Under the pieces are notes generated by a model. That model worked only from the letters and a program-made list of their open reading frames with translations, had not been told where the DNA came from and made no database searches. Shown here in pieces: positions 22,515 to 35,832 of a stretch of DNA of 44,389 bases. The stretch's first letter is position 1; every line of letters begins with the position of its first letter. The DNA lies in IMG/VR virus record IMGVR_UViG_3300048611_000042, positions 1-44,389 of that record; one strand, 5' to 3'. Source of the DNA: a virus. Its lineage: Duplodnaviria > Caudoviricetes. The position numbers were made by a program, and so were the translations under genes.

Positions 22515-22718
22515 GTGACGAGTCTGGAGTACGTCTGGCTCGCGGCTGGCGCGGTGATCGCTGGGCTGGAGGGCTACGGGATCTACCGCCACGAGCGCGG
22601 GGTCGACACGCCCGACGACACGGTCACCGAGTTCGCTCGGCGGGTGATCCGCCGCTGGCCCTTCGCCAGCATAGTGGCATGGGGCTGGCTCACGTACCAC
22701 TTCTTCATCGAGGGGTAG
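22515..22718 (+). CDS. Small membrane protein
   Basis: Two hydrophobic segments; last + strand gene. Confidence 0.65.
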   Translation: MTSLEYVWLAAGAVIAGLEGYGIYRHERGVDTPDDTVTEFARRVIRRWPFASIVAWGWLTYHFFIEG

Positions 22719-22720
22719 GG

Positions 22721-23002
22721 CTACGCGGCGGTCGTAGCCCGCTGCGCGCACCACCGTCGGTGCCCGTTCAGAGCCAGCCCGTTGCGGGCCTCAAACCCAC
22801 ACTCGGGACACGTGGGGGTCTGTCTCTCGGCTACGACCTCGGCGACGCGCGTTGCGATGTCGGGGTAGCGGTGGAGTAGGTCATCGAGGATGCGCTTCAG
22901 CGTCTGGTCCCGTTCGAGCCCGCGGGCCACCCTGTCGAGGTGGTCCGCCTCATGCCCCGAGTAGGCGACGCGCGGGGTAAAGGTCCCGCGCTTGGATGCC
23001 AT
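22721..23002 (-). CDS. Small protein with C2H2-like zinc finger
   Basis: CPECGFEARNGLALNGHRRWC; start MASKRG chosen so as not to overlap the tRNA. Confidence 0.65.
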   Translation of the reverse strand: MASKRGTFTPRVAYSGHEADHLDRVARGLERDQTLKRILDDLLHRYPDIATRVAEVVAERQTPTCPECGFEARNGLALNGHRRWCAQRATTAA

Positions 23003-23025
23003 GTGGTCCCGCGCCGTGTGTGTCA

Positions 23026-23099
23026 TGGCTGCCAGGCGAGGACTCGAACCTCGGTCTGCCCGATACAATCGGGCGTTCTGCCAACTGAACTACCTGGCA
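23026..23099 (-). tRNA. tRNA (Asn-like body) with aberrant 5-nt anticodon loop
   Basis: TGCCAGG TA GTTC AGTTGGCA GAAC G CCCGA TTGTA TCGGG CAGAC CGAGG TTCGAGT CCTCG CCTGGCA G CCA; all stems perfect; 74 nt. Confidence 0.88.
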
Positions 23100-23222
23100 T
23101 GGTGCAAGCGCGGCCCCGATCCTCGCCACGCAAGCGACAACAGGGACGTGGGCACCACCCACGTCGTCCGTCGCTCCCTCTGCGCTGTTCCCGTGCCAGG
23201 TCGTCACCCAGCGGCAGCCGCA
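23100..23222 (-). ncRNA. Unclassified 123-nt structured RNA ending in ACCA
   Basis: Exactly fills the gap between two tRNA-like genes; stems GACGTGGG/CCCACGTC, AGCGAC/GTCGCT, CGCA/TGCG, GCTGGGT/ACCTGGC, TGCGGCT/GGCCGCG. Confidence 0.5.
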
Positions 23223-23302
23223 TGGTGGAGGCGGGGGGAGTCGAACCCCCGTCCGTCGTCGATCCCCGTGGGGCTCTCCGACGTCGAACTCCATACGCCC
23301 CC
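23223..23302 (-). ncRNA. Miniature tmRNA: tRNA-like domain only
   Basis: GGGGGCG TATGGAGTTCGA CGTCG GAGAG CCC CACG GGG ATCGA CGACG GAC GGGGG TTCGACT CCCCC CGCCTCC A CCA; G3.U wobble, A discriminator, stemless D-loop ending TTCGAC, GGAC before T-arm. Confidence 0.85.
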
Positions 23303-23367
23303 GTGTCGACGGCGAGAGCAACGGCCAGGGGGATGGTTAGAGGCCCCCGCCGTCGACGAGAGACACG
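23303..23367 (-). ncRNA. Hairpin with C-rich loop (candidate sRNA or leader)
   Basis: Perfect 10-bp IR GTCGACGGCG 23305-23314 / 23348-23357, inner GGCC/GGCC, loop TCTAACCATCCCCCT. Confidence 0.4.
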
Positions 23368-23401
23368 GTCCGCGTGTGCGGCGGAGCGTGTCTGCGTGCC
23401 G

Positions 23402-23641
23402 TCACGCCGCCTCCTCCACTTCCTCGGGGGGCCACAGCCACACCAGGAACGCCTGCCACGCGATCAGGTCGCGCATGCAGCGATCGCAGTAGTCGAGTGG
23501 CCTCGTCAGGTACGTGCGTCGCACGCACCCAGGGCGCTTGCAGCAGCCGTGCTTGACCGCACGGTTGGTCAGGCGCTGGACCCGACCCTTCCGCTGCATG
23601 CGGTTCACGCGGCGGTACGCCGCGCGCGTCTCTCGGCTCAC
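23402..23641 (-). CDS. Small basic Cys-containing hypothetical protein
   Basis: GTGA-coupled; CKRPGC...YCDRC. Confidence 0.6.
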   Translation of the reverse strand: MSRETRAAYRRVNRMQRKGRVQRLTNRAVKHGCCKRPGCVRRTYLTRPLDYCDRCMRDLIAWQAFLVWLWPPEEVEEAA

Positions 23642-23841
23642 AGGATGACCCCATGCAGCGCGCGGTACGCGTGGAACGCCGCTTCGAGCCGCGCCGCGGC
23701 GCGCTCCAGTTCTTCGGCCTCGGCCGCCATCGCCTCGGGCACGGGACCCCCGTACCCGCAGACGTAGTCGAGCAGCCCGCCCTCCCAGTCGACCTTCTCC
23801 AGGAACTCCTGGGGCGAGCCCTCCCACACGCGATCGCTCAT
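23638..23841 (-). CDS. Hypothetical protein
   Basis: ATGA-coupled; MSDRVWEGSPQEFLEKVDWEGG. Confidence 0.65.
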   Translation of the reverse strand: MSDRVWEGSPQEFLEKVDWEGGLLDYVCGYGGPVPEAMAAEAEELERAAARLEAAFHAYRALHGVIL

Positions 23842-24047
23842 GCCGCCACGAACCCGTAGCCGTGCCACCGCGTCCAGACCAGGCGCCCGATCGTGTCGCT
23901 GTTGCAGTCGATCACGCGCATGGACGGCGGGCGCGCCACGCGCGCGTCGGTGCCGCTGACCAGGTCGCTGAGCAACTCGTTCAGTCGCTCGATGAACTCG
24001 GCGACCCGCCTGCAGTCCGTCTCGTTGGCGGCGGCGGTCTTCTTCAT
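23838..24047 (-). CDS. Hypothetical protein
   Basis: ATGA-coupled to ligase stop; MKKTAAANE. Confidence 0.65.
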   Translation of the reverse strand: MKKTAAANETDCRRVAEFIERLNELLSDLVSGTDARVARPPSMRVIDCNSDTIGRLVWTRWHGYGFVAA

Positions 24048-24979
24048 GCTGCCTCGCTCTCGTCGTCGAAGGACGCGCCAGCGAGGCGGTCCTTGTACCA
24101 CTGCGGGAGTCCGCCCTGGACTCCGCGCAGGATGTCCTTGCGGAAGTGGCGCCAGAGGAGGTCCTTGATGTCCGCGGCGCACTCCTCCTCGACGTCCTCG
24201 GTGACCGCCTTCATCAGCGGGCCGATGTCGACGACGTCGCCCGTGAGGCGCCCGTCGTCGCGCAGGTGCTGCACCGCCTTCTCCCAGCGCATGGCGTTGC
24301 GGTACTGGTCGATGATCGACGTCACGACGTCCGCGCGGCTTGGGTTGCGCGTCTTCCAGTCGCCGCGGTGCGTCTCCTTGAACGCCTCGCTGACGTACTT
24401 GCCGAACATCGGATCGCCGAAGTGGTTCAGGCGGTCGTGCGCCTTCAGCACGATCCCCTCGATGGGCGTGCCGCCAAGGAACGACTCGCGCTCCAGCATC
24501 TGCTGCACGACACTCAGCCCGCCGACCTTGATCTCGCGATGGAGCAGCGGGACCCTTTCCAGGCCCACGACGGACGCGAACTCGGCCATGATGTAGTTCG
24601 GGAGGAAGGTGCCCTCGGCGTCCTGTACGTCGAAGATCGCGATGTTCCCCTCGGGCACGCGGTCGTACTTCAGCGTGTTGTGCTTCGGGCGGTTCAGGTA
24701 CTCGCCGCGGAACACGTAGCCCTCGGGCAGCAGCCCGAACCGCTCGGCGATCTGCTGCACGCCCGCCTGGAACATCCCGTCGACCTGCAGGCGCTCGACC
24801 TCGCGAGCCCCGTCCACGAGCACGCCCCCCTTCGAGCGCACGTACAGGCGGTCGTCGATGCGGGCGAAACTGATCTGCGACCCGTCGACCTTCTCCTGGA
24901 CCGACACGTAGTCGTCGAGGATGCCCTCGATGGCCCTGTGGCCCAGGTTCCAGACCTTCGGGTACGAGCCGATGCTCAT
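24044..24979 (-). CDS. RNA ligase, Rnl2-like
   Basis: Nucleotidyltransferase motifs QEKVDGS (I), VRSK (Ia), FRGEY (III), IFDV (IIIa), EGIVLK (IV), GKYVSEAFKE (V); helical C-domain rather than OB fold. Confidence 0.85.
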   Translation of the reverse strand: MSIGSYPKVWNLGHRAIEGILDDYVSVQEKVDGSQISFARIDDRLYVRSKGGVLVDGAREVERLQVDGMFQAGVQQIAERFGLLPEGYVFRGEYLNRPKHNTLKYDRVPEGNIAIFDVQDAEGTFLPNYIMAEFASVVGLERVPLLHREIKVGGLSVVQQMLERESFLGGTPIEGIVLKAHDRLNHFGDPMFGKYVSEAFKETHRGDWKTRNPSRADVVTSIIDQYRNAMRWEKAVQHLRDDGRLTGDVVDIGPLMKAVTEDVEEECAADIKDLLWRHFRKDILRGVQGGLPQWYKDRLAGASFDDESEAA

Positions 24980-25617: not shown

Positions 25618-25926
25618 TCAGGCGGGTGTCTGTGGGGGCTGGGCTCCTGGCAGGAGCAGCCGCGGCCCCGAGAGGTCGTTCCAGACGCGCTCCAGCAACT
25701 GGTACAGGCGCACGCGAGCGAACGTCTCGAACTGCGCTCGCCCCTCGCTGCCGCTCGGCCACACGGACTCGATCAGCGTCTCGACGCGGGCGTCGGTCTG
25801 GATCAGGCCCACTGGCACGGGCGTCCCAGCGAGGCGCTGCTCCAGCGCCTCGATCTTCTCGTCGAGCACCGCGTCGACGTCGACCACGGTGGCGTCGGCT
25901 TCGAGGACTTCGACGTCGTCTGTCAC
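25618..25926 (-). CDS. Hypothetical protein
   Basis: GTGA-coupled start VTDDVEV. Confidence 0.6.
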   Translation of the reverse strand: MTDDVEVLEADATVVDVDAVLDEKIEALEQRLAGTPVPVGLIQTDARVETLIESVWPSGSEGRAQFETFARVRLYQLLERVWNDLSGPRLLLPGAQPPQTPA

Positions 25927-26747
25927 GGCATGCTCCATCGAGGGAAGTCGCGCGGGGCCACCTGCGCCGACTTGGCGGCGCAGTGCTCCGCGTTGTACGC
26001 GTCGACCGCGATCTCGCGGATGCGGGCTTCGTCCGCCGCTGCGACGGCGTGCCCCAGCGTCTCGGACCGCACGATCTCCACGATCTCGTCGCGGGTCCAC
26101 GGGATGGGAACGTGGCTCAGCCAGTTCACCGCCGCCCCGCGCAGGTCCTCCTCGTCGTGCTCGTACGCCTCGTCCACCACGGCGAACCCAGCGTTGCTCG
26201 TCTCCCCCTCCGAGATGGGCGAAGCGGAGACGAGCGGCGGTGGGCCACACAACACGTCAGCGAACAGCGGGCACTGGAACGTGCCGTCGATGAGCATGAG
26301 CCCGACGATCGCGTAGCCGAGCAGGTCCGCCTTCGTGTCGACGATCGGCTCGTGCAGGGCCTCGACGCGCCGCTCCAGGTTCCTCAGCCGCGCGACCTTG
26401 TCGGAGAGCCGCACGAGGACCCCCAACGCGCCGAACGCGTTGATGTTCTCGTGGCCGTAGTCGTGCTGCTTCGAGATCACCGTGTCCACGACCCCGTCCA
26501 CGAACTCGCGGCGAACGTGCGGGATCGTGGAGTGGTCGGCGATCACCGAGACGCCGATCGAAGACAGCCCGTCACGCAGATACGTGGGGGAGGCGTCCTC
26601 CTGCGCGTTGCGGGCGACGCGCAGATCCCAGGCCACGGCCTCCTGGAGGGCGAGGTCGAGTGGGTGGCGGTCCCACACTCGGTTGGCGCGGTCGAGGATC
26701 TCGTCGGCCGCGCGGTGCGCGCCCTGCTCCCAGGTGAGGGGGCTCAC
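25923..26747 (-). CDS. Nucleotide-modification-associated domain 1 (DUF1599) protein
   Basis: SKQHDYG..N...GVLVRLSDKVARL...DTKADLLGYAIVG. Confidence 0.8.
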   Translation of the reverse strand: MSPLTWEQGAHRAADEILDRANRVWDRHPLDLALQEAVAWDLRVARNAQEDASPTYLRDGLSSIGVSVIADHSTIPHVRREFVDGVVDTVISKQHDYGHENINAFGALGVLVRLSDKVARLRNLERRVEALHEPIVDTKADLLGYAIVGLMLIDGTFQCPLFADVLCGPPPLVSASPISEGETSNAGFAVVDEAYEHDEEDLRGAAVNWLSHVPIPWTRDEIVEIVRSETLGHAVAAADEARIREIAVDAYNAEHCAAKSAQVAPRDFPRWSMP

Positions 26748-28453: not shown

Positions 28454-28879
28454 CTACGCTCCCTGTGTGCCACGGAGCGTGTCCGCCGCGGGCGGGAAGC
28501 GGAGGTAGTCGATCGCTGCGAGCAGGGTCTGCTCGTCGTCGCGTGCTGCTGGCAGCAGGCGCTTGTTGCACGTCTTGCACAGCAGTCCACGCACCGACCC
28601 ACGAACGCCCACAGCACGCTCCAGCGCGTGGTCATGGTCCACGTGGAGGTTGTAGGCGGGCTTGCGCCCGCAGATCGCACAGCGTCCGCCCTGGCGCTTC
28701 AGGATCGCGTCGTACTCCTCCAGGGTGATGTCGTACGTCTCCTGCAGGTGCTGACGGCGCGCGGTCTGGCGGGTCGTGTCGCGGCGACACGACTGGCAGA
28801 TGCGGCCTCGGGGCGTGAAGAACCGCGTGGCGCGGTTAGCCCCGCACCTAGCACACGTGCGGTAGCCCCTACGCGCCAT
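28454..28879 (-). CDS. Endonuclease VII-family nuclease
   Basis: YDITLEEY...QGGRCAIC...LHVDHDH...VRGLLCKTCN. Confidence 0.92.
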   Translation of the reverse strand: MARRGYRTCARCGANRATRFFTPRGRICQSCRRDTTRQTARRQHLQETYDITLEEYDAILKRQGGRCAICGRKPAYNLHVDHDHALERAVGVRGSVRGLLCKTCNKRLLPAARDDEQTLLAAIDYLRFPPAADTLRGTQGA

Positions 28880-29267
28880 TGAGGACCTGCACGTGGTACA
28901 CGGGCACGCCCGCCTGCTCGGCGCGCGTCACCATGTTGAGCGTGCCCCTCGACTCCTTCAGCGGCTTGTCGGTGAACGCGAACACCACGTCGGGCTTGCC
29001 CTCGTTCAGCATCCGCCTGTTGCGGATCACGCCAGCGGCCTTGCCGTGGCGGTCCCAGTCGGCTCGGTACTGGAGGTGCTCGATGTCGAAGATCCACTCG
29101 TCCTCCTGGACCCACCGCGCAGCGCGTGCGTCGGCGCCGCGGGCACCGCCCTCGATCACCACGAGCGACTCGCCGTTGGGGACCCGATCGAGCAGCCCAT
29201 CGAGCAGGCTCTCGATGACGCCCAGGCCCTCGTCCCAGGTGCGGCTCCCGCACACGAGGACCCTCAT
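28869..29267 (-). CDS. SLOG-superfamily protein (DUF2493/YspA-like)
   Basis: VLVCGSR, IEGGARGAD, ADWDRHGKAAGVIRNRRML, SRGTLNM. Confidence 0.88.
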   Translation of the reverse strand: MRVLVCGSRTWDEGLGVIESLLDGLLDRVPNGESLVVIEGGARGADARAARWVQEDEWIFDIEHLQYRADWDRHGKAAGVIRNRRMLNEGKPDVVFAFTDKPLKESRGTLNMVTRAEQAGVPVYHVQVLNGA

Positions 29268-34655: not shown

Positions 34656-35437
34656 CAGGCGACAGCCTCCTCGTGTGCTGCGGGGGCCGACCACGTCGGG
34701 GCGAGCCCGCGCTGGCGGCGGTACTGGAGCAGCCGCGAACCAACGACGTACGCGCGGTGGTGCGTGAACTCACCAGCGAGTTCGGGGTGCTGGCGGCAGA
34801 CCTCGTCGGCGACCTCCTGCCAGGCGAGGCCCTGGTCGCGCAGCGCCAGGATCAGGTCCGTGGGCCACTTGCGTCGGCCGTACGCGGCGCCCTGGACCCA
34901 CTCGACCCCGTGCCGCACAGCAAGCACCCGCATCGCGTTGTTCTGGTTCTCGTGCGACAGCCCGAAGCGGCGAGCGAGTGTCGGCGCGTTCGGGGTCATG
35001 CCGTGCTCGGTGATGTGATCCTCGTACGCGCAGATGCGCTCGGCCAGCGGCATCGCTCGCGGGTTCAGTGCCGCCCCCACGACCTCGGCGAGCGGCACGC
35101 CCATGTAGTTCGCGATCGAGCGCATGGTCATGCGCTTCTCGATCAGCGGCCAGATGGCGACGCGGCGCGCCGCGTACACGTCGTTCGCGAAGCCACCCTT
35201 GGTCCACGCCATGACCGCAGCAGCCCGCGCGTCGTCGTCGTGGTCCACGTCGAGCAGGGATCGCGCTCGGTCGTAGATGTCGAGCGTCTCCTCGCCCCAG
35301 GCGAGGAACGCCTCACGGAACGGAAGGTCCTCCTCCATGAGCGCGAGCAGCCGCTTGTGGCGGTACACGTGGGCCACGGGCACGCCGCCAGGTAGCGGGG
35401 CCACGTCTGCCAGATCGTCGAGAACTGCTGCCTGCAC
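34655..35437 (-). CDS. Hypothetical protein with HTH-like segments
   Basis: SD GGAGG; MTMRSIANYMGV and LRDQGLAWQEVA. Confidence 0.65.
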   Translation of the reverse strand: MQAAVLDDLADVAPLPGGVPVAHVYRHKRLLALMEEDLPFREAFLAWGEETLDIYDRARSLLDVDHDDDARAAAVMAWTKGGFANDVYAARRVAIWPLIEKRMTMRSIANYMGVPLAEVVGAALNPRAMPLAERICAYEDHITEHGMTPNAPTLARRFGLSHENQNNAMRVLAVRHGVEWVQGAAYGRRKWPTDLILALRDQGLAWQEVADEVCRQHPELAGEFTHHRAYVVGSRLLQYRRQRGLAPTWSAPAAHEEAVA

Positions 35438-35622
35438 GTTCGCCTCCAGGTGTGTGCGCCTGGAGGGGAGACAGCAGCAAGTCCGCGCGCGTCTAGGTCG
35501 CTCGGACTACCATGGTCCCTGCGCGGGTCGGGCGGAAGCCCGAACCCGAGCGGGGGGCGGCGTGGAACACGTGCTTGCCAGCCTGGGACACGCCGTCCCC
35601 CCTCGCTTCTCGATTGTCAGTG

Positions 35623-35658
35623 CGGGCACGAGCACGCTTGCGACGTGCTCGCACTCCT
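35623..35658 (-). repeat. 36-nt hairpin repeat, copy 1
   Basis: + strand CGGGCACGAGCACGCTTGCGACGTGCTCGCACTCCT, identical to 43509-43544. Confidence 0.9.
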
Positions 35659-35832
35659 TGCTCTTGCGCGCTCGGCCTTACGAGCCGAGCGCCGTACGCG
35701 CTCGCGGGCAGGCTTCGCTACCCGCTGGTCGCTCAGCCCCTTCGTGGACCCCCTCTGTAGTCCCCCCCACGGGACAGGTCTGGTGCGGGGTCATGTCCAT
35801 GCTGGGCTGGGGGACGGGCGACGGTACCAGCG

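Follow-up and report, generated by a model that had tools for sequence, protein, structure and literature searches.

Does the ligase gene that lies just upstream of a row of tRNA-shaped RNAs in this phage genome work together with them, as one module of translation rescue and RNA repair against translation-targeting defenses, or do the two only share a neighborhood? The window analyzed here is the entire 44,389-nt phage record IMGVR_UViG_3300048611_000042 (~69% G+C). Its plus strand, up to ~22.7 kb, carries the structural and lysis genes, and a long minus-strand arm encodes the integrase, helicase, primase, sigma-like and other genes, with the RNA row at its far end. A stretch downstream of the integrase (35380-35830) has few genes and many hairpins and may be an attP or regulatory region. 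The sequencing runs that contain the RNA row are soil metagenomes. The features of the locus are as follows.

22721-23026, minus strand: orphan ORF that follows the tRNA; its C-terminus has a zinc-finger-like motif, CxxC...HxxxxC, and the protein search matched itself alone
23026-23099, minus strand: tRNA-Asn-derived gene, 74 nt (RF00005, 56.8 bits; fold z -3.67)
23100-23222, minus strand: orphan structured segment with an ACCA end, a candidate stable RNA that fills the gap exactly
23223-23302, minus strand: tag-less tmRNA of 80 nt, reduced to the tRNA-like domain (TLD-only; RF00023, family alignment and covariation)
23305-23357, minus strand: 15-bp hairpin with a C-rich loop (z -4.73), 2 nt before the mini-tmRNA, without CCA
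23361-23391, minus strand: small hairpin (z -3.28)
23402-23641, minus strand: ORF3, ~79 aa, a small Cys-rich protein with no Pfam match over the cutoff
23638-23841, minus strand: ORF2, 67 aa, with a partial match to phrog_22497 (unknown function, E = 4.2e-6); the protein search matched itself alone
23838-24047, minus strand: ORF1, 69 aa, with no Pfam or PHROG match and no usable Atlas match
24044-24979, minus strand: ATP-dependent polynucleotide ligase, 311 aa (PF09414, E = 2.9e-14)
25923-26747, minus strand: DUF1599-like protein, upstream of the ligase in the same arm
28869-29267, minus strand: YAcAr SLOG protein (PF10686), upstream of the ligase in the same arm

Along the minus strand the ligase is followed by the three small ORFs, 99 nt with two hairpins, and the 80-, 123- and 74-nt units, which abut one another and each end in CCA. 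For comparison, 1.9% of minus-strand positions read CCA and 0.35% read ACCA. The initial annotation described a gap-free array that included the C-loop hairpin; the abutting, CCA-ended arrangement holds for the three units, but not for the hairpin, which stands 2 nt off the mini-tmRNA and has no CCA. For the same two reasons its reading as a tRNA mimic is unsupported, and it gave no Rfam match at E up to 10 and no homologue at the viral or metagenome loci. Stop/start overlaps do couple the ligase, ORF1, ORF2 and ORF3, as had been proposed, but the ligase is not the start of this run: its ATG overlaps the stop of an upstream DUF6197 gene, and the run thus begins further upstream. The Atlas matches of ORF3 all stay under 0.9 and belong to unnamed phage and actinobacterial clusters. 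At all three junctions (23222, 23099 and 23025) the CCA is followed by UG, giving an AUG each time, the last of which starts the downstream ORF.

The 80-nt unit bears out its earlier description as a mini-tmRNA. It scores 67.4 bits (E = 2.9e-24) against the Rfam tmRNA family RF00023, and by its sequence it is a further example of a published kind, the DS6A-type TLD-only tmRNA. The acceptor stem has 7 of 7 pairs, including G3.U70, and is followed by a discriminator A and the ACCA end. The UUCGAC/GAC elbow and the T arm are present, no D stem is seen, and a short P2 stem carries a small hairpin cap; the elbow columns are invariant in the family alignment A1, but were partly fixed by the search pattern. 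The two halves lie ~30 nt apart, which leaves no room for a message or tag frame. ARAGORN called no tmRNA in the window. A permuted tmRNA gene was considered and rejected, as the permuted model scores only 29.4 bits against a cutoff of 47.

Of the 63 loci that the pattern scan of viral sequences returned, 54 are TLD-only; the remaining 9 do not pass the acceptor test and are for the most part full or permuted tmRNAs. All 120 metagenome matches are TLD-only (~570 stretches are estimated), and the viral and metagenome sets combined comprise 131 distinct sequences, while a collection of genomes from 185,579 species gave only 10 pattern matches. Because U70 and CCA are set by the patterns, and G3 too by the one used on metagenomes, the sole unforced result is the presence of G3 in 48/48 distinct viral sequences, for which the pattern left this position free. 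Among these 48 sequences, covariation with changes on both sides was counted 28 times in P2 and 30 times in the T-stem, and sister alleles of the mini-tmRNA retain the P2 pair. Three mini-tmRNAs with an altered T arm or 3' end (L394, L393 and L395) were overlooked by the strict pattern, and the family is therefore larger than the pattern counts. Matches without RNA annotation occur in five cultured Streptomyces phages (pSt2308, LuckySocke, GiJojo, BRock and Alone3; the sequence was inspected in two of the five). Mycobacteriophage DS6A is reported to have such a gene, and its RNA or a similar molecule to inhibit the host tmRNA, perhaps by titrating SmpB (PMC4131195, PMC11915505). Tag-less tmRNAs, described in these accounts from one phage, DS6A, are yet common and unannotated.

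The 74-nt unit retains an Asn-type tRNA body (cloverleaf, U1-A72, G73 and CCA), the encoded CCA overlapping the ATG of the next ORF, and all 40 listed blastn matches (the best 40 of 175 records) are tRNA-Asn. Its anticodon loop has 5 nt; on folding, the arm forms 7 pairs that enclose 3 nt. The identity Thr(tgt) given by ARAGORN was rejected, since that call reads the 3-nt residual loop. The 7-nt loop with a GUU anticodon of a decoding tRNA-Asn is absent from the window and present in a sister contig from another soil run, X3. This contig (151 nt, depth 2) spans the whole tRNA gene and 55 nt of the orphan unit, and it differs from the window by 6 substitutions and a 2-nt insertion. Read by hand from the five listed substitutions and the insertion, the X3 allele has the loop CUGUUGA with anticodon GUU, a variable loop AUGUC, and one T-loop change. 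It is a single low-depth contig, of a sort that the tool flags as possibly wrong; an error is less likely here because the anticodon-loop changes bring back a normal Asn loop, a rare outcome of random error.

All five listed allele differences fall at positions unpaired in the cloverleaf (P ~0.013, post hoc), and in the window allele two of them lengthen the anticodon stem, by one pair at each end. Because the X3 loop is normal and the changes are confined to unpaired positions, decoding was likely the original state, and sealing a recent change. As read from these alleles, the odd tRNA is a recently altered tRNA-Asn and not a fixed mimic family. A scan for tRNA bodies 2 nt short found 48 loci with 33 distinct sequences, 8 of which combine an acceptor of at least 6 pairs and a perfect anticodon stem with a 5-nt loop; all 8 loops differ. 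The decoding and sealed forms of the tRNA-Asn make a natural allele pair, which could show how non-decoding phage tRNA look-alikes originate.

The segment between these two genes, 122-123 nt long as its first U may be a 1-nt spacer, had been claimed as a discrete RNA, and here the evidence is mixed. Its ACCA falls exactly at the tRNA boundary, which is the best hint of a real unit; no base is left over, and the central 47-nt arm (23131-23177) is strong, with z -3.97 for a sub-window picked after looking. The whole 123-nt unit, on the other side, folds no better than shuffles (z -1.16). From its second base a 6-of-7 stem can be closed before the ACCA, as it can at 145 of 1919 random positions (7.6%), and the 3' 84 nt can fold as an acceptor, a long arm and a T-like arm (z -1.73), with no T-loop consensus. 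No sequence search gave a homologue, viral and metagenome loci included; with E values up to 10 allowed, Rfam gave no match for the unit and none to Y RNA, SRP RNA or T-box across 22700-23700, and a Pfam scan of the 62 ORFs found no TROVE match for Ro60. The unit is near-identical in soil runs X2 and X3, which shows no selection, because the coding pieces of those runs differ by only 0-6%. The loop of its long arm, UGGUG (23149-23160, minus strand), is complementary to CACCA, the 3' end of both the mini-tmRNA and the orphan unit; this pairing has no comparative support.

Mini-tmRNAs elsewhere also have RNA neighbors, and these vary. A tRNA lies within 300 nt of 21 of the 131 mini-tmRNAs and within 20 nt of 11. 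At L019:2905-3000 (minus strand; also in L045 and L056) a 96-nt cloverleaf begins directly after the mini-tmRNA CCA (z -2.43), its T arm normal and its D and anticodon arms not. In Streptomyces phage Alone3 (OR725492.1, L460:1338-1468) an unannotated ~130-nt tRNA-shaped gene, with a branched insert in the anticodon arm, sits directly upstream of the unannotated mini-tmRNA. The proposal of non-decoding, tRNA-shaped RNAs in a packed row is supported, and odd tRNA-shaped RNAs abut mini-tmRNAs in other phages too. Six loci (L004, L026, L035, L053, L061 and L063) share a long stem with G-rich and C-rich strands upstream of the mini-tmRNA, ending in a common pyrimidine run just before it, and the 100 nt upstream of the mini-tmRNA have a fold z below -3 in 24 of 130 loci.

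The ligase consists of an N-terminal nucleotidyltransferase domain, with motif I EKVDG fitting KxxG, and a predicted helical C-terminal domain. In the structural model its catalytic fold is Rnl2/Rnl5-like, which for the catalytic part agrees with the earlier Rnl2-like assignment. The counter-nuclease precedent that had been invoked concerns another ligase family: Rnl1 and Rnl4 are described as sealing loop breaks, and Rnl2 as sealing 3'-OH/5'-P nicks in duplex RNA or RNA:DNA (PMC4408790). As in the earlier reading, no polynucleotide kinase/phosphatase gene was recognized: among the 62 ORFs scanned, Pfam gave no match for a kinase, phosphatase, SmpB, Ro60 or CCA-adding enzyme, although most small ORFs have no family and an end-healing enzyme may hide among them.

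Co-occurrence in other phages speaks most directly to the question of a joint module. No match to the ligase profile turned up in the 3 kb flanks of the 54 viral mini-tmRNA loci or in the 2.5 kb flanks of the 120 metagenome ones; 80 of these 174 loci include at least 1700 nt upstream, enough to show the gene at the distance seen in the window. Conversely, a mini-tmRNA lies within 5 kb of the ligase at one of the best 80 of 357 viral ligase loci, L070, where it is encoded on the same strand 3.7 kb upstream. When whole records are compared, a 67-84-nt TLD-only match is present in 3 of 80 ligase records (~3.7, 13 and 17 kb away) vs 0 of 50 controls (Fisher p = 0.23, or p = 0.14 with a 139-nt variant counted). 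That variant, in a ligase-carrying phage (L408, minus strand, ~1501-1639; G105:C1:3618-3756), has a tmRNA-type G3.U70 acceptor, an ACCA end and two T-loop-like motifs. In the reverse test, on 46 records (47 of the 54 loci were kept after duplicates were dropped, and one of these was left out), a PF09414 gene occurs in 3, at least 9 kb away and from other subfamilies. No Streptomyces phage matches the window ligase, though five cultured ones carry the mini-tmRNA. Most records in the survey are fragments, and the nearest relatives of the window ligase, at 53-58% identity, lie on contigs outside it, so that the result applies to linkage beyond this phage's own clade.

Recurrent same-strand neighbors of the 80 ligase loci are DNA polymerase A (13/80), DnaB (10/80) and an RNase H-like exonuclease (8/80); the small ORFs of the window have no relatives there. 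The YAcAr SLOG and DUF1599-like proteins each have a relative near one other ligase locus (L123 and L070, respectively). A HAD 'Swiss army knife' RNA-repair phosphatase lies near the ligase at 4 of 80 loci, and the ligase family can therefore be tied to RNA repair. Because ligase and mini-tmRNA are almost never found together in the phages surveyed, the ligase is probably only a neighbor of the RNA row. The neighborhood survey proposed for mini-tmRNA and Rnl2 has thus largely returned no linkage, and the union of ligase and RNAs in one module was not borne out, which narrows the significance of the locus. Two observations count against this unlinked reading: a tmRNA-type acceptor RNA occurs in 3-4 of the 80 ligase records, a non-significant excess over the controls, and the HAD phosphatase lies near 4 of 80 ligases.

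At the far end of the minus-strand operon we likely see two unrelated things, an RNA-gene cluster and a widespread phage ligase gene. The explanation that we favor, and hold to be reasonably probable, is a small-RNA cluster in the style of phage T4 at the end of a long operon, with a mini-tmRNA directed against the host SmpB and a ligase that acts separately. Host RNase P and 3' nucleases would cut the operon tail into small RNAs, by analogy with tRNA processing in general and with T4. For the tag-less tmRNA, its conserved features and the DS6A report predict alanylation and binding to host SmpB; it may then compete with the host tmRNA for SmpB and stalled ribosomes, and such competition would lower the tagging and degradation of proteins made during infection. 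The altered tRNA would no longer decode and would persist as a cloverleaf, either as a processing signal or as a recent mutant allele. The ligase would seal nicks in duplex RNA or RNA:DNA in its separate role.

A variant of this explanation, fairly unlikely in our judgment, keeps the rest and makes the mini-tmRNA a tag-less rescuer instead of a sponge: the alanyl-TLD with SmpB would enter a stalled ribosome, accept the nascent chain and free the ribosome without a degradation tag. The unforced G3 fits this route, as do the reports that mitochondria and some plastids retain tmRNAs without a CDS alongside SmpB (PMC11915505) and that the ribosome is bound by a truncated tmRNA together with SmpB and EF-Tu (PMC8363625); since the mini-tmRNA has neither a resume codon nor a stop codon, a further release step would be needed, and tmRNA is reportedly inhibited by the DS6A-like molecule irrespective of whether that molecule can be charged (PMC4131195). 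As five cultured Streptomyces phages carry the mini-tmRNA, the choice between sponge and rescue is testable by simple knockout. An unlikely reading is that the row, without the ligase, is a selected cassette of non-decoding tRNA mimics, the tRNA-Asn being sealed as a nuclease-proof form or decoy and the orphan unit being a third mimic. The confinement of the five listed substitutions to unpaired positions and the pair gained at each end of the anticodon stem agree with selection, and so do the recurrence of 5-nt loops on intact stems (8 of 33), the odd tRNA-shaped RNAs beside mini-tmRNAs in L019 and Alone3, and the acceptor-like fold available to the orphan 3' 84 nt. The eight pentaloops differ in sequence, however, several resembling simple 2-nt deletions, the X3 sister allele is still decoder-like, and the orphan has neither a homologue nor a T-loop consensus; the closed-stem test that it passes is also passed at 7.6% of random positions.

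In a more elaborate and distinctly unlikely form, the tRNA would be losing its decoding role and becoming a sealed mimic without an anticodon, within a swappable cassette of tRNA-shaped RNAs that jointly decoy SmpB and tRNA-targeting defenses. The orphan would then represent a new family of RNA, and its UGGUG loop might read CCA ends. The joint module of the initial annotation, in which the ligase, small ORFs and RNA mimics together counter tRNA or mRNA nucleases, we regard as highly improbable. In its favor, the ligase and RNAs are adjacent and co-oriented, phage-encoded tRNAs and ATP-dependent RNA ligases have been presented as counter-defense equipment (PMC7824862), and one other ligase locus, L070, has its same-strand mini-tmRNA 3.7 kb upstream. 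Against this stand the 174 mini-tmRNA loci without a ligase, the lack of an end-healing enzyme among the 62 ORFs in Pfam, a modeled fold closest to duplex nick sealers and not to the loop-sealing Rnl1, small ORFs without relatives near other ligases, and cultured Streptomyces phages that have the mini-tmRNA while no Streptomyces phage has a match to the ligase.

With respect to known systems, the ligase shares 14-19% identity with T4 RNA ligase 2 (Rnl2) and the Naegleria and Deinococcus Rnl5 enzymes, and its own activity is only predicted. Whole-model searches did not superpose its C domain on that of Rnl2 (rmsd 13 when included). The Rnl5 architecture also differs: the window ligase has no N-terminal module, its catalytic domain starting from residue 1 and aligning to NgrRnl 139-339, and ~100 helical residues follow the catalytic domain, whereas Rnl5 has no C-terminal appendage. 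The T4 Rnl1/Pnkp anticodon repair against PrrC resembles the present case in that a single phage genome encodes both a ligase and RNAs of tRNA type.

The RNA genes have counterparts as well. Phage tRNA-Asn(GUU) genes, such as gene 7 of Mycobacterium phage Luchador, share with the window tRNA the U1-A72 pair, G73, a similar D loop and ~74% identity; unlike the Luchador tRNA, that of the window has a 5-nt loop, and the U32-A38 and G26-C44 pairs seal a 7-bp stem. The X3 sister allele has GUU with G at position 37. The DS6A gene (tmRNA Website, tmID 11587) is likewise a phage-encoded tmRNA tRNA-like domain without a tag frame, a likeness that rests on published descriptions, and the gene in the window adjoins an orphan RNA and an altered tRNA-Asn. 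For the orphan unit, T4 (NC_000866.4) offers rnaD (119 nt) and rnaC (139 nt), directly behind tRNA-Arg, as non-tRNA units of similar size lying 1-6 nt from tRNA genes. These are annotated stable RNAs with no sequence similarity found to the window unit, itself a candidate stable RNA. T4 rnaD, 1 nt behind tRNA-Arg, with an ACCA end and a fold no better than that of shuffles (z -0.72), is its closest precedent in form.
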